Source: Escherichia coli
Lineage (GTDB): Bacteria > Pseudomonadota > Gammaproteobacteria > Enterobacterales > Enterobacteriaceae
DNA length: 3,747 nucleotides
Direction: 5' to 3' (one strand)
Assembly (NCBI RefSeq): GCF_003334255.1
Contig: NZ_QOWU01000116.1
The notes below the pieces were generated by a model. That model ran no database searches, was not told where the DNA came from, and worked only from the letters and a program-made list of their open reading frames with translations. Below, in pieces: positions 1-3,747 of the stretch (positions within the stretch are counted from its first letter, which is position 1; each line of letters begins with the position of its first letter). A program made the translations under genes and the position numbers.

Positions 1-134
1 GTGAAGACAGCGACCTCCGTCTGGCCGGTTCGGATTCGTACCTCGCAGAGGTCTTTCCTCGTTACCAGTGCCGTCACTATGACGGTTAAACAGATGACGA
101 TCAGGGCGATTAACATCGCCTTTTGCTGCTTCAT
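1..134 (-). CDS. hokD: Hok-family type I membrane toxin HokD/RelF, 3'-truncated by the window edge (first 44 codons present)
   Basis: Minus-strand ATG at 134-132 with AGGAG 9 nt upstream (complement of 144-148). My manual translation is MKQQKAMLIALIVICLTVIVTALVTRKDLCEVRIRTGQTEVAVF, which I recognise as the Hok/Gef-family toxin encoded downstream of relE in E. coli. It is below the size cutoff of the ORF track and runs off the window at position 1. Confidence 0.85.
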   Translation of the reverse strand, partial: MKQQKAMLIALIVICLTVIVTALVTRKDLCEVRIRTGQTEVAVF

Positions 135-205
135 AGCCTGCTTCTCCTGTCAACGCAAAGCAGAAGTGTCACCTTCGGTGCGAAACAGAGATGTCATGCT
201 TTGGT

Positions 206-493
206 TCAGAGAATGCGTTTGACCGCCTCGCTATATACTTCCGAGCGTTCTCTTTTCCCAACAGAAATCACGAAAACGACAACTTTCTCGTCTATAACCT
301 GGTATACAAGGCGATAGCCTGAAGACCGGAGCTTAATCTTGTAACAATCAGGCATACCACGGAGCTTGTTTGCTTCAATCCGGGGTGACTCAAGTACTTC
401 AACCAGCTTCTTTTTCAACTGTTCACGTACCGTCGAGCCCAGCTTTCGCCATTCCTTTAGTGCCCGCTCGTCAAAATCCAGAAAATACGCCAT
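206..493 (-). CDS. relE: RelE type II toxin (ribosome-dependent mRNA endonuclease)
   Basis: 95-aa ORF MAYFLDFDERALKEWRKLGSTVREQLKKKL...VISVGKRERSEVYSEAVKRIL, recognised from memory as E. coli RelE. Its ATG (493-491) overlaps the relB stop codon by 1 nt (TGATG on the minus strand), the canonical coupled arrangement. Confidence 0.96.
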   Translation of the reverse strand: MAYFLDFDERALKEWRKLGSTVREQLKKKLVEVLESPRIEANKLRGMPDCYKIKLRSSGYRLVYQVIDEKVVVFVISVGKRERSEVYSEAVKRIL

Positions 494-732
494 CAGAGTT
501 CATCCAGCGTCACACGTACTGGCTTAGGATTACGAAGCCGTTCTTTCACTATCTCCACAAGTTCAGCATCTTCATCACTCAGGAGTGTCTGTTTGAACGG
601 CAAGCGTTCATTGTCAGCGATATACTCGAGCATGAGACGAAGCGCTTCAGAAGGAGTTACACCCATTTTTTCAAGCGCGGCGTAAGAACGCGCTTTAAGT
701 TCATCGTCAATACGCAGGTTAATGCTACCCAT
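493..732 (-). CDS. relB: RelB type II antitoxin (ribbon-helix-helix autorepressor)
   Basis: 79-aa ORF MGSINLRIDDELKARSYAALEKMGVTPSEALRLMLEYIADNERLPFKQTLLSDEDAELVEIVKERLRNPKPVRVTLDEL, recognised as RelB. GAGGTG Shine-Dalgarno sits 6 nt upstream of the ATG (complement of 739-744). The gene lies immediately upstream of relE in the same orientation. Confidence 0.96.
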   Translation of the reverse strand: MGSINLRIDDELKARSYAALEKMGVTPSEALRLMLEYIADNERLPFKQTLLSDEDAELVEIVKERLRNPKPVRVTLDEL

Positions 733-742
733 GTCTTACACC

Positions 743-796
743 TCTTGTAATTACAAATGTCATTACAAGTATCGCACTACAACATGCTTAGGGCAA
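743..796 (-). promoter_or_regulatory. relBE promoter with relO operator
   Basis: Minus strand reads TTGCCC (791-796) - 17 nt - GATACT (768-773), followed by CTTGTAATGACATTTGTAATTACAAG, which holds two TTGTAAT repeats and a perfect 12-bp palindrome TTGTAATTACAA (745-756). This matches the known RelB/RelB-RelE autoregulatory operator architecture. Exact -35/-10 assignment is by eye. Confidence 0.7.
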
Positions 797-1062
797 GTCA
801 CGAAGGAAGTCAGAAAGTAGTCGTAAGAACGGTGATCACTGTCCGCTTTGTGCCAGGAGCAGCCATTGCTAAGTCCATCCTGTATTGTGCAGGTCAGCTC
901 GTTTTTAAAGAGTCCGGCCATCATCTTACTGGTACAGACACCATATACTTTGTGACGGTCAGGCTACATATGCACAACTCAACTTATTCATCTATTTTTT
1001 GCTTTAGCATGTCAGTGTTGCTTTCTCGTCGGCGGGTGAGCGGTGACCTGACCTGTCGATAA
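757..1062 (+). CDS. ydfV: Hypothetical 101-aa ORF divergent from relB; position and length correspond to the annotated E. coli prophage ORF ydfV; coding status doubtful
   Basis: It is the only ORF of 60 aa or more in the relB-flxA gap that does not overlap a confident gene. Its ATG lies inside the relO operator, it has no Shine-Dalgarno, and the product is S/T/V/R-rich with no motif I recognise. The symbol is assigned from synteny (hokD-relE-relB-ydfV-flxA) and length as I recall them, not from sequence identity. Confidence 0.3.
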   Translation: MSLQVSHYNMLRASHEGSQKVVVRTVITVRFVPGAAIAKSILYCAGQLVFKESGHHLTGTDTIYFVTVRLHMHNSTYSSIFCFSMSVLLSRRRVSGDLTCR

Positions 1063-1214
1063 AGGAACGTAACACGTTTTATGCAACACCCGCATGCGGC
1101 AGAAAATTATTGCCGAACGTTTACCCCTGTCAACAAGCTTTACTTTCTGAGGCGCGCCAGCCCGCGAGGAAAACAATCTGAACATCAAACAATTAATGAC
1201 ACAAGAAATACGAT

Positions 1215-1241
1215 TAAAGATTTTTTTGTGCATGCCGATAG
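1215..1241 (+). promoter_or_regulatory. Sigma-28 (FliA) class 3 flagellar promoter driving flxA
   Basis: TAAAGATT (1215-1222) - 11 nt - GCCGATAG (1234-1241) against the consensus TAAAGTTT-N11-GCCGATAA, a 7/8 match in each element. It sits 24 nt upstream of the flxA start codon. Confidence 0.8.
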
Positions 1242-1264
1242 TGCTTTTTTAAAAGGAGAAATCT

Positions 1265-1597
1265 ATGTCTGTCACAATTCAGGGAAATACCTCAACCGTT
1301 ATTTCAAACAACTCCGCCCCGGAAGGAACATCAGAAATAGCCAAAATCACAAGACAAATTCAGGTGCTGACTGAAAAGCTTGGGAAAATCTCATCGGAAG
1401 AGGGGATGACGACACAGCAGAAAAAAGAAATGGCTGCATTGGTACAGAAGCAAATTGAAAGCCTCTGGGCTCAACTGGAGCAGTTGTTAAGGCAGCAGGC
1501 AGAGAAAAAGAATGAAGACGCGACAGTTCAGCCTGATAAAAAAGAAGAGAAAAAAGACGATACAAATACCGCTGGCACCATTGATATTTACGTCTAA
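1265..1597 (+). CDS. flxA: FlxA, FliA-regulated protein (small hydrophilic, coiled-coil-like, K/E/Q-rich)
   Basis: 110-aa ORF with AAGGAG (1253-1258) 6 nt upstream of the ATG, a sigma-28 promoter directly upstream and an intrinsic terminator directly downstream. The product MSVTIQGNTSTVISNNSAPEGTSEIAKITRQIQVLTEKL... is recognised as FlxA of the E. coli Qin prophage. Confidence 0.9.
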   Translation: MSVTIQGNTSTVISNNSAPEGTSEIAKITRQIQVLTEKLGKISSEEGMTTQQKKEMAALVQKQIESLWAQLEQLLRQQAEKKNEDATVQPDKKEEKKDDTNTAGTIDIYV

Positions 1598-1611
1598 GTG
1601 ACAGCCGTATT

Positions 1612-1634
1612 GTGGCCCTCATCGGGCCACTTTT
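1612..1634 (+). terminator. Rho-independent terminator of flxA
   Basis: GTGGCCC (1612-1618) - TCATC loop - GGGCCAC (1624-1630) followed by TTTT (1631-1634), starting 15 nt after the flxA stop codon. Confidence 0.75.
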
Positions 1635-2033
1635 CGCCATCAGCCTTTTCTTTAAAGACATATTATCTTTGTATCATTTCTGATAGTTAACATTACAAGA
1701 TATAAGTAATGGACGCACTCCCAATTAGTCTATTTAAATCGCCACGAGTTTAACTGACAACCCATGATCAATTATGAATTGCAACTATTTCTGTAGTCAC
1801 TTTTGTGGGGACAGTCCACAAAACTGCCAACTTCCGCTTCTTGCTCTTAGCGGACATTAGCATAGGCTATTTACCATAACGCCTCATTACGCGCACCGCC
1901 CAGACTGACTCAGCGCGTTTCTGGCATATCCCCGGTAAAACAAGTAACAAACCACCCGAAAATGAACACCAGAAACGCGACTTAAGAATCTACCCTATGA
2001 ATGGATATGCACTCAACCGAATCGATCTTGGTT

Positions 2034-3347
2034 TCAATCTTTTTTATCGGGATCAGGCTTCTTTTTAGGTAACTTCGGGGGCTTAACTTGCTGATGACTT
2101 TGCGTTCGGCGCGTAAGCCAGGGATGGTCAGCTTTAGGTTTAACATAGTATTTTGAGCGTAAATCAATACGGGCATTATCCACTCGTTCATGGACACTCT
2201 TTTCATCATCCAGTGGTATAGGCTCCGGGCCATCAACATACTTTTCCCAGCCCAGCGCTTTCCCGTCATACAGAACGTTAATTTCACCGTCAAAGTTCTC
2301 GCATACAGTAACAACCGAATGCCTAAGTCGATATCCCCGGCCCTCACTGCGTACCTGAAACGCACTGCTTTTGTACTGGAAAGTGAGATTTTTAGACAGA
2401 ACGCGCTTCGCCTGTAGGCTGAAGATATAACCCAGTTCCTCTTCAGAATGGTGCACATCAAGATGAGCATTATCAGTAGTACGAGGCGACGTAGCGAACC
2501 GGTTGTTATAGGCTTCAATAAAGGTCGGCAACCATGCATTTGCTGTTTCAATATCACTGATATTCTGAAGCCGCATTTCTTTGACCAGCCTGTCCTGTAG
2601 TGTCTGATTGGCGCGCTCTACCCGCCCTTTTGCCTGCGGGCTGTTGGCATGGATTGGCTCGATGCCCAGTGTCTTTATCGCACGAGTGAACTGGGTCAGC
2701 TCACCTTCCCGCTCTGGGTTATTTACCCTGAATATACTGTGTCTATCAGAGTAGAGAGCGAGCGATACGCCATGATCATTAAGGTAACCCCGGAGGGTTT
2801 CCATGTAAGCCCGGGTTGTTTCAGCAGGCACAAAACGCAACGCCATCAACGCACTGGTGGCATCATCAATGAAAACGATCAGTGTACATCTGGGGCCTCG
2901 ATTTTCAAACCAGTCATGAGGTGAGCCATCAATCTGGATCAGTTCACCGTAAGATGGTCGTCGCATGCGGCGTTGATATATACGGGCAATTTTACGACGG
3001 CGTTCACGCCATAACCCCTCTTCTATCATCCACTTTCTGAGAGTTTCAACGGATAAAGATAAACCGTGTATCTCGCGCAATTTTTCGCACGCAAACGTAG
3101 GTCCAAAATCAGCGTAACGGCCTTTGAGGAGTGAAATTACTGTTGCTCTGAATTCAGTAGAAAAGGAATTATTAGGACGCTTTCCACGTCGGTGGGAAAC
3201 CAGACCAGAAGGCCCTTCATTTCTATACCGTTGCACCAGACGTTTAACCTGCCGAATAGAAATGCCAATGCGTGCCGCAGCTTGTTCCTGAATAATCTGA
3301 AGTCGGTGGAGTTCCTTATGACTCATCGTAACAGTCTCTTTGATCAT
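2034..3347 (-). CDS. DDE transposase with N-terminal helix-turn-helix and integrase-core (rve-like) catalytic domain; IS481/ISNCY(IS1202-group)-like
   Basis: 437-aa ORF. The N-terminus (ELHRLQIIQEQAAARIGISIRQVKRLVQRYR) looks like a helix-turn-helix. Candidate catalytic triad in typical rve context and spacing: D in LIQIDGSPHDW, D in LALYSDRHSIF, E in AKGRVERANQTLQD. The C-terminus is basic and proline-rich (KPPKLPKKKPDPDKKD). GGGGGA Shine-Dalgarno sits 6 nt upstream of the ATG. Family placement is by motif recall, not alignment. Confidence 0.9.
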   Translation of the reverse strand: MIKETVTMSHKELHRLQIIQEQAAARIGISIRQVKRLVQRYRNEGPSGLVSHRRGKRPNNSFSTEFRATVISLLKGRYADFGPTFACEKLREIHGLSLSVETLRKWMIEEGLWRERRRKIARIYQRRMRRPSYGELIQIDGSPHDWFENRGPRCTLIVFIDDATSALMALRFVPAETTRAYMETLRGYLNDHGVSLALYSDRHSIFRVNNPEREGELTQFTRAIKTLGIEPIHANSPQAKGRVERANQTLQDRLVKEMRLQNISDIETANAWLPTFIEAYNNRFATSPRTTDNAHLDVHHSEEELGYIFSLQAKRVLSKNLTFQYKSSAFQVRSEGRGYRLRHSVVTVCENFDGEINVLYDGKALGWEKYVDGPEPIPLDDEKSVHERVDNARIDLRSKYYVKPKADHPWLTRRTQSHQQVKPPKLPKKKPDPDKKD

Positions 3348-3355
3348 GAAAAATC

Positions 3356-3375
3356 CCCCAGAGAATTGTCTGGGG
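3356..3375 (-). promoter_or_regulatory. Stem-loop in the transposase 5' leader that would sequester the Shine-Dalgarno
   Basis: The minus-strand RNA would read CCCCAGA-CAAUUC-UCUGGGG, 7-bp arms with a 6-nt loop. The 3' arm overlaps 4 of the 6 nt of the GGGGGA Shine-Dalgarno (3354-3359), which lies 6 nt before the ATG at 3347. Confidence 0.4.
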
Positions 3376-3524
3376 ACATTTTAGAATGGTTCAAAGGGGA
3401 CATTACAGCTTGGTGTTAACAATAGCCTGCTTCTCCGTGCCTTTCGGCACGTAAGAGGCTAACCTACATGTGTCTAGCATGAAATTGGCCTCAGATTAAT
3501 GTTAAGCGTCTTGCAGGACGCGTA

Positions 3525-3707
3525 ATGTTAACTGGGGCTTTTCTCTATCTGCCGTTGGTGTCCATGCCCGAGGCAGATAGCCTCAAGCACCCGCAGTCAT
3601 TCTACTTAACTAAGATTTCCCCGCAAACCGTTTTTGTCCAGCACAGTAAATATCCAACTAAACCAATGGAGTTCGCTGTATTTACCGCCAGTATTCAATG
3701 CACATGA
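3525..3707 (+). CDS. Hypothetical 60-aa protein, unknown function
   Basis: ORF with AGGA (3515-3518) 6 nt upstream of the ATG. Its TGA stop (3705-3707) overlaps the ATG (3704-3706) of a following in-frame-shifted ORF, the ATGA arrangement typical of translationally coupled genes. I do not recognise the product. Confidence 0.3.
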   Translation: MLTGAFLYLPLVSMPEADSLKHPQSFYLTKISPQTVFVQHSKYPTKPMEFAVFTASIQCT

Positions 3708-3747
3708 CCGCCATGAACACCCCTAAAAAAAGGGCATTTATATATCC
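3704..3747 (+). CDS. 5' end of a hypothetical ORF continuing beyond the window (MTAMNTPKKRAFIY...)
   Basis: ATG at 3704 overlaps the stop of the preceding ORF, with a second in-frame ATG at 3713. The reading frame is open to the window edge. Only 14 codons are visible, so the call rests on the coupling geometry alone. Confidence 0.25.
   Translation, partial: MTAMNTPKKRAFIY

Follow-up and report, generated by a model that had tools for sequence, protein, structure and literature searches.

The question raised by the locus considered here is why hokD, a toxin gene of the Hok family, is found directly behind the toxin-antitoxin operon relBE and apart from the regulatory leader that belongs to it. 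The three genes lie on the minus strand at the left end of a stretch of Escherichia coli DNA of 3,747 nucleotides (contig NZ_QOWU01000116.1), the whole of which is called the window below. A previous reading, made from the letters alone and called here the sequence-only reading, described relB, relE and hokD as a composite locus, with a type II module fused to a type I toxin gene in one transcription unit. As written, this is correct but ordinary, and its interpretation is only partly supported. Based on the present analysis, bases 148–3421 are very probably one transposon of the IS1202 family inserted in the start region of hokD, with relBE in its left arm and with the leader of hokD beyond its right end. 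It was also held that the locus is well described and not novel, which is true of the operon, a matter of textbooks, but not of the transposon reading, which is well supported and apparently undescribed. It should be noted that the integration of relBE into the hokD open reading frame (ORF) and its plasmid origin were stated earlier, in a passage of PMC6379469 that cites Ramisetty and Santhosh (2016). In the searchable full-text literature we found neither a link of IS1202 elements or of ISEsa1, the catalogued insertion sequence (IS) discussed below, to hok or relBE, nor a description of the terminal inverted repeats (TIRs) together with the duplication; earlier priority is possible.

We first consider the leader. 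In the type I layout of hok loci, tac, mok and the target of Sok immediately precede hok within one mRNA, which is not what is found at hokD, where an element of 3274 bp intervenes. The sequence-only reading had noticed no separate promoter and no Sok-like region upstream of hokD. This holds for the spacer between relE and hokD, in which the Rfam check that it called for gave no sok match even at E ≤ 10, and for the stretch from relB to hokD; it does not hold for the window, a scan of the whole of which gave a full-length match to Rfam RF01794 (sok) at 3421–3592 on the strand of hokD (104.1 bits against a gathering score of 59, E = 9e-24). The model of this family spans the leader of the hok mRNA, beginning with tac at the 5′ end and reaching to the start codon of hok. 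The leader of the window ends with ...GGAGAAGCAGGCTAT and is then followed by unrelated sequence, that of the transposon, while the sequence directly upstream of hokD is GGAGAAGCAGGCTATG. The last 15 bp of the leader are repeated exactly and directly at the start of hokD, the two copies flanking 3274 bp (148–3421); in the hok sense the repeat reads GGAGAAGCAGGCTAT and runs from the Shine-Dalgarno sequence (SD, GGAG) of hok through the AT of its ATG.

The site without the element can be observed directly. In the alignment to the intact loci of strain MIN14 (L004) and of L003, the 15-mer occurs once, bases 148–3421 are absent and the leader is contiguous with hokD, with the leader and the hokD of the window being the two halves of the intact locus. 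The leader of the window is about 98% identical to that of MIN14, whose HokD (WP_000813254) is the same as the K-12 protein and has rem downstream as in K-12, with no relBE present and with genes of a phage replication region as the upstream neighbours; L003 has a variant HokD (WP_000813256) and no rem. In MIN14, mokD and hokD form one in-frame ORF of 70 codons, of which hokD is the distal part. The gene annotated as hokD is joined directly to the leader in many E. coli: among 5426 complete genomes, a 200-bp query over the intact junction is contiguous in 4036, while the junction of relBE with hokD is present in about 1200 and the full right arm of the element in 789. We also considered whether the leader could be that of a second hok gene, into which the IS was inserted and of which the ORF would lie on the other side of the transposase gene; this is ruled out by the lack of any Hok-like ORF in 1600–2034 and is contradicted by the intact-locus alignment, which joins the leader straight to hokD. 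As for promoters, a scan of 3300–3747 for the sigma-70 consensus found neither that of hok nor that of sok, and TTGCGG-17-TAGAAT, seen by eye upstream of the leader, is under the threshold of the scan. A weak match to the sok family on the opposite strand (3534–3715, plus strand; 18.9 bits, E = 0.37), which overlaps the real leader in part, is not significant and is probably an effect of the long hairpins of the leader.

The 3274 bp that are delimited in this way have the structure expected of the IS1202 family, the members of which have imperfect TIRs of 24–26 bp with TGT...ACA termini, a second internal copy of the repeat and a large TnsB-like DDE transposase (PMC10132070). The element begins with TGTCAACGCAAAGCAG... 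at the left and ends with ...GGTGTTAACA at the right. Its two TIRs agree at 19 of 26 positions and have TGT...ACA termini, an agreement that is reached by 1 in 200,000 random pairs of 26-mers from the window (~5e-6), and inner copies of the repeats, a large DDE transposase gene, the duplication and the empty site are all present. The transposase matches NF033594 (ISNCY_2) with 452 bits against a cutoff of 250, over positions 7–365 of the 368 of the profile, and contains the Pfam domains HTH_32/29/28 and rve_3. A sharp boundary is seen at 148 with 13 different flanking sequences, some of these differing from one another by 1 nt only. The spacer between relE and hokD (135–205, 71 nt) consists of 13 bases of the duplication (135–147) followed by the left TIR and the second repeat (148–199), and therefore the succession relB-relE-hokD is an insertion junction. 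The features of the window are collected in Table 1.

Table 1. Features of the window (positions in nucleotides from its first base)
Feature	Position	Strand	Remark
hokD	1–134	−	start ATG 134–132; codons 1–44 of 51; 3′ end beyond the window edge
Target-site duplication, left copy	133–147		15 bp, ATAGCCTGCTTCTCC; exact direct repeat of 3422–3436
Left arm of the element	148–860		713 bp; left TIR, relE, relB, promoter region; conserved
Left TIR	148–173	+	TGTCAACGCAAAGCAGAAGTGTCACC; 19/26 against the reverse complement of 3396–3421
Subterminal copy of inner left TIR	174–199	+	candidate second transposase-binding site; weaker of the two subterminal repeats
relE	206–493	−	mRNA-interferase toxin, 95 aa; WP_000323025, identical across all element copies examined
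relB	493–732	−	antitoxin and autorepressor, 79 aa
Palindrome, candidate relBE operator	744–769		CTTGTAATTACA / TGTCATTACAAG; just upstream of relB, in the promoter region
ydfV ORF	757–1062	+	3′ part within the variable cargo
Variable cargo	861–1842		here 3′ ydfV ORF and flxA; other DNA instead in plasmid copies; travels with the element in L014
flxA	1265–1597	+	in the variable cargo
Right arm of the element	1843–3421		conserved; catalogued ISEsa1; 98–99.7% identical to annotated 'IS1202-like element ISEsa1'
Transposase gene	2034–3347	−	intact ORF, 437 aa
Terminator-like hairpin with T run	3355–3376	−	between right TIR and transposase ATG
Subterminal copy of inner right TIR	3372–3395	−	79%
Right TIR	3396–3421	−	plus strand GGGGACATTACAGCTTGGTGTTAACA, reverse complement TGTTAACACCAAGCTGTAATGTCCCC; pairs with left TIR
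Truncated mokD' ORF	3403–3480	−	25 aa; starts in the leader, stops inside the right TIR
Target-site duplication, right copy	3422–3436		15 bp; exact direct repeat of 133–147
Orphaned hokD mRNA leader	3422–3592	−	Rfam RF01794; tac, mok start, Sok target with antisense sok gene, hok SD

Compared with the copy of 446 aa at L014, the transposase of the window has an in-frame deletion of 27 bp near 3286–3296, by which ESINRHITQ (residues 21–29) is lost from the N-terminal helix-turn-helix (HTH) region. The deletion falls where the intact sequence has direct repeats of 11 nt that are 27 bp apart, as seen from overlapping BLAST segments, which suggests slippage or recombination between short repeats. 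Elements of 3274 bp, with the deletion, and of 3301–3302 bp, without it, are both widespread.

Whether the insertion at hokD is a single event or one of a kind was addressed by scanning both ends of the element in three public collections and in plasmid records and by reading all the flanks. The combination of the relBE left arm, a variable cargo and the transposase right arm is found in at least six other hok loci, in prophages and in IncF, IncHI2 and IncHI1B plasmids, each hok-site copy having its own duplication of 13–16 bp that is matched at both ends and all being in the same position and orientation. Elements of the window type have 15 bp duplicated at hokD, a length of 3274 or 3301 bp and the ydfV end and flxA as the cargo, and L074 is also at hokD, with 16 bp duplicated and an element of 3304 bp. 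At plasmid hok genes, the copy in K. pneumoniae p44-1 (L006) has a duplication of 15 bp, ATAGCCTTTTTCTCC, and an element of 4661 bp; that in IncHI2 plasmid pCE1537-A (L060) has 15 bp and 6093 bp, with a cation transporter and a cytochrome b as cargo; and that in an IncFII/IncR plasmid of E. hormaechei (L059) has 13 bp and 12,843 bp, with ncrABCY, chrBA and others between relB and the transposase gene. A hok gene in a metagenome (L084) has 16 bp duplicated around 4600 bp, and the two copies L016 and L049, at a second hok gene of E. coli, have 16 bp duplicated and exchanged flanks. Finally, L014 lies at a non-hok site beside tRNA genes, with a duplication of 6 bp around an element of 3301 bp that is 99.7% identical to that of the window. 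Between copies with different cargo the left arm is 98.9–99.6% identical and has the same inner end at 860 (L006, L007, L059, L060, L084), while the homology of the right arm begins at 1829–1843.

The position of these insertions is precise. In most of the hok copies the left repeat stands directly against the first G of the SD (GGAG), being shifted by 1 nt in L016 and L107. Of 9 distinct Hok proteins, 8 have the ATG 13 nt from the left repeat (L016, 10 nt; L107, 12 nt). At the hok-site copies relE is always oriented into hok, and sok leaders recognised by Rfam adjoin the right repeat in L049, L074, L084, L059 and L010. That insertions in hok loci recur with one position and one orientation makes it likely that the hok initiation region is a preferred target of the element, with the choice of the target presumably being mediated by the transposase.

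Several further features of these copies were noticed. The element in E. hormaechei (NZ_CP058161.1, 58.9–71.8 kb) carries ncrABCY (nickel/cobalt), chrBA (chromate), a HupE/UreJ gene and a methyltransferase, and lies between the hok leader on the psiB-psiA side and the Hok ORF; the same cargo is also present beside the transposase gene in Enterobacter sp. Ag1 (L008), where the right flank is not hok. In L006, about 1.1 kb of extra DNA (7180–8285), beginning with TGTGTAAGTTCAC, stands between the right duplication and the sok leader (Rfam match 8285–8455) and probably represents an additional insertion at this place. In L073, L082, L096, L098, L100 and L081 another IS of the DDE type, with an ORF ending in ...NCNMWWTHT and with the terminus ...GGACCCATACA, sits at (T)CTCC directly at the left repeat, hokD not being adjacent; on the right side of L081 the hokD leader is still present. 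A contig of 5.5 kb labelled as a metagenome-assembled genome of Collinsella sp. (L009, JAIJJM010000167.1) contains the hokD-type insertion of E. coli with the flanks unchanged and is most likely a mis-binned Escherichia contig.

The interpretation of the whole 3274 bp as one mobile unit differs from the boundaries under which its right part is known. As its ISfinder entry is quoted in the 2023 survey of the family (PMC10132070), ISEsa1 has 1609 bp, TIRs that match at 15 of 22 positions, no duplication and no recognisable target. The span 1840–3421 together with the missing 27 bp is 1609 bp, which is the length quoted there, and many enterobacterial plasmids have elements annotated as ISEsa1 to which the transposase part is 98–99.7% identical. 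Judged from the alignments, the catalogued ISEsa1 would be the right arm, from which it differs in its left end; this 'left end' would be the boundary of the cargo, with the functional left end appearing to be at 148, and this would explain why the survey saw no duplication. The other way of reading the same facts is that only the ISEsa1 of about 1.6 kb (about 1840–3421) is mobile, that relBE reached hokD by another route and that the pairing of the two is due to hitch-hiking or to plasmid recombination. In agreement with this are the 1609-bp IS that ISfinder lists, according to the survey, the many plasmid matches that span the right arm alone, and the larger divergence of the right arm (89–99%) than of the left arm (at least 98.9%), which implies some mosaicism. 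However, no direct repeat is found around 1843–3421 alone in the window, L005 or L008, just as the survey reports no duplication for ISEsa1; left of the 1843 boundary L005 and L008 have the same DNA, on the right they differ, and a unit of 1.6 kb bounded by inverted repeats of its own is not what is seen there. Moreover, matched duplications are always at the paired ends corresponding to 148 and 3421, whatever the cargo, for elements from 3.3 to 12.8 kb; in L014 all of the 3301 bp stand at a new site, flanked by a duplication of their own; and the end at 148 has the TGT terminus and the repeat architecture of the family. We therefore consider mobility of ISEsa1 alone as improbable, and the finding suggests that ISEsa1, as catalogued with no duplication and no target in the quoted entry, is wrongly delimited.

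If the transposon extends from 148 to 3421, it could still be that it was inserted in a hok locus only once and has since spread by homologous recombination through the hok flanks, in which case its position and orientation would tell nothing about the choice of target. The hok loci of prophages and plasmids are 85–95% alike, and the two copies in one genome (L016 and L049, IMG/VR 2534681836) have clearly exchanged flanks: on the left side of L049 is hokD, with the leader of the other hok on its right, while the left side of L016 is that other Hok ORF (MMPQRTF...), which indicates recombination between the copies. By such a route, however, the duplication of the donor would travel along with the element, while in fact the two copies agree with one another and with the hok sequence around them. 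In addition, the length of the duplication, 13, 15 or 16 bp, differs between near-identical targets (L059, L060 and L084), which recombination cannot yield. A single ancestral insertion is consequently even a little less probable than mobility of the right arm alone. That relB, relE and hokD are an ancestral or selected three-gene toxin operon, with the 15-bp repeat a coincidence, deserves hardly any credence, for although the genes are co-transcribed (PMC3598666) and so arranged in the roughly 1200 of 5426 complete genomes mentioned above, intact hokD/sokD loci without relBE and with an identical HokD exist, the hokD-type junction is contiguous in 4036 genomes, the alignment to the empty site already contradicts it, the spacer is transposon-end sequence, and the missing leader is exactly one element-length away.

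Some points speak against the interpretation of the 3274 bp as a targeted transposon and should be kept in mind. With nine residues of the HTH region gone, the transposase of the window is probably inactive, and the left subterminal repeat is weak. The varied length of the duplication, with 13, 15 or 16 bp at hok and 6 bp at the non-hok site, is unusual for one DDE transposase, and the boundaries of ISEsa1 in the catalogue entry quoted by the survey, a 1609-bp IS with no duplication, disagree with those proposed here. As for the preference for hok, the copies in E. coli are almost all at the same hokD site and were probably inherited with the prophage. The right ends of L008 and L012 and the left end of L007 stand next to non-hok DNA, and no partner end that matches was present in the sequences examined, indicating that rearrangements occur too. 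The preference could also look stronger than it is, should insertions at other sites be selected against.

We now turn to the consequences for hokD, for which the identities of the genes are of importance. These had been assigned correctly from the letters: RelB matches the NCBIfam equivalog NF008412 (133 bits against a cutoff of 96) and RelE matches TIGR02385 (54.7 bits against 27.9), while the cut HokD matches the Hok family NF007279 with E = 1e-10, below the cutoff because its ORF is truncated. Bases 1–800 show 100% identity with K-12 MG1655 and with many further E. coli, whose annotation names the genes relB, relE and hokD, and RelB and RelE are the same as the experimentally studied K-12 proteins. 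No frame is disrupted in the three genes, and the spacing is also as had been given, the relB stop and the relE start overlapping by 1 nt (TGATG at 495–491) ahead of the 71-nt spacer. An antitoxin gene of the RelB family followed by an overlapping toxin gene of the RelE family, with a palindrome upstream, is a type II toxin-antitoxin operon. The arms of the palindrome have 12 nt each (744–755 and 758–769) and are 92% complementary. Autoregulation of relBE is established, and from this and from its position the palindrome is a candidate for the relBE operator.

With these elements, the following pathway is proposed. The element would have been inserted into the translation-initiation region of hokD/sokD in a Qin-like prophage, with the duplication of 15 bp. 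Its left arm would bring a relBE operon that reads outward and has no terminator. Because of the duplication, hokD keeps its SD and its ATG, while its own promoter, tac, the mok frame and the Sok target are now 3.3 kb upstream, at 3422–3592. Transcription of hokD would then occur only by read-through from the promoter autoregulated by RelB and RelE, with hokD as the third cistron of relBEF, and this dependence would exist because of targeted transposition. Since tac, the mok start and the Sok target lie across the element, the relBEF mRNA cannot include any of the three, and Sok RNA would no longer be able to pair with hokD mRNA. In other hok loci the same type of element, with other cargo such as nickel and chromate resistance or a cation transporter, would have been inserted independently.

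The pathway is consistent with published data on expression. Northern blots showed relB, relE and relF (hokD) on one full-length transcript, the induction of which is lost when PrelBEF is deleted (PMC3598666), in line with the dependence of hokD on the relBE promoter that had been put forward from the letters. We found no promoter-like or terminator-like site between relB and hokD, nor any terminator-like site from relE to the end of the element. The word 'fused' hides the cause of the arrangement, the module being an insertion junction and not an operon that evolved as a unit. Relative to hok/sok of R1 and the chromosomal hok loci, the same Hok-family ORF and the same full-length RF01794 leader are present, with the difference that toxin and leader are here split by 3274 bp; likewise the hokD mRNA made from PrelBE differs from an R1-type hok mRNA in lacking tac, the mok start and the Sok target. 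It is thus expected that hokD is free of control by Sok and mok and is governed transcriptionally by the autoregulation of RelB and RelE, that its translation is probably inefficient without coupling to mok, and that the orphaned leader and the sok gene are probably relics. Two other possible consequences were considered. That the hok promoter now drives the transposase gene is weakened by the terminator-like hairpin that stands before the transposase ATG, and sequestration of the SD by the new upstream sequence is not apparent at the junction of relE and hokD, where the fold (z = −1.2) is indistinguishable from that of shuffled sequences.

The sequence-only reading took the arrangement to be simply that of K-12, which is not borne out. 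The genes, the spacing and the promoter are the same in K-12 Qin relBEF and in the window, but the window alone holds the complete element: K-12 Qin corresponds exactly to window bases 1–2218 and continues with unrelated Qin DNA, and no sok leader is present in 10.8 kb around the K-12 locus. To judge from this comparison, K-12 is a deletion derivative that has lost the N-terminal two thirds of the transposase, the right end, the right copy of the duplication and the sok leader. Note also that 'ydfW' of K-12 (49 aa; window 2034–2218, L001 7034–7183) is a C-terminal remnant of an ISEsa1-type transposase, and that RefSeq splits the intact ORF of 437 aa into 'ydfW' and a pseudogene, 'ISNCY family transposase, missing C-terminus'. 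The lack of regulation of hokD was reportedly attributed by Pedersen and Gerdes in 1999 to a 'major rearrangement', of which the present proposal would give a concrete molecular account. In the same work hokA, hokC and hokE of K-12 are said to be inactivated by IS150 or IS186 near the gene and not at the start codon.

Within the IS1202 family, the nearest parallel is the ISAjo2/ISAba71 group of pdif/dif 'site hunters' (PMC10132070), which is like the element here in the related family of large DDE transposases, in imperfect TIRs of 24–26 bp that match at about 19 of 26 positions and have TGT...ACA termini, in the inner repeat copy near each end, and in the orientation-specific insertion at a fixed distance from a short conserved site. 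By contrast, ISAjo2/ISAba71 have dif as the target, a duplication of 5 bp and a length of 1.5 kb, while the element here has the hok initiation region, 13–16 bp and 3.3–12.8 kb, with cargo and a toxin-antitoxin module. It would be a second example in the family of precise, orientation-specific target choice, with the target itself being an addiction module on mobile replicons. Outside the family, transposons of the Tn3 family carry toxin-antitoxin modules, and Tn7 is a targeted transposon with cargo. The element is similar to these in having an addiction module in a transposon, a TnsB-related transposase, a site preference and cargo; unlike them, it has the module at its extreme end reading outward into the target gene, and no TnsC/D/E-like genes are present.

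Taking these together, we lean slightly towards the wider proposal that relBE of K-12, far from being a chromosomal toxin-antitoxin locus in its own right, is the left arm of an unrecognised class of cargo-carrying IS1202-family transposons, with the catalogued ISEsa1 being no more than their right arm. Such transposons would specifically seek the SD and start of hok in prophages and conjugative plasmids, disconnect Sok and mok from it, put the toxin gene under their relBE promoter, and move metal-resistance and other cargo from one replicon to another. The system relBE is among the founding models of toxin-antitoxin systems, and its context has been used in the debates on the roles of chromosomal toxin-antitoxin loci and on the polar effects of relBE deletion on hokD. 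If a transposon has relBE as its terminal module, the patchy distribution of relBE, the identical copies in IncF, IncHI2 and IncHI1B plasmids and the absence of Sok control at hokD would all be explained. Moreover, the plasmid versions with nickel, cobalt and chromate resistance genes would make the element relevant to the spread of metal resistance.

Finally, some observations concern the cargo and its neighbourhood. The full 3747 bases of the window are matched in a group of strains that includes W5-6 and G1/2. The boundary at 860 between left arm and cargo falls within the ydfV ORF, the first 104 nt of which are the relBE promoter arm that is common to all the elements; no family match was found for this ORF, which may be a chimera and not a gene. 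The top sigma-70-like match in 1–1300, TTGACA-16-AATAAT (11 of 12) at 1106–1133 on the minus strand, sits between ydfV and flxA and points towards ydfV and relB. Immediately before the right arm, GGGGACAGTCCACAAAACTGCCAAC at 1806–1830 resembles the right TIR (about 15 of 25 by eye) in direct and not inverted orientation; it forms a small palindrome with 1793–1808 and could be the remnant of a nested end.

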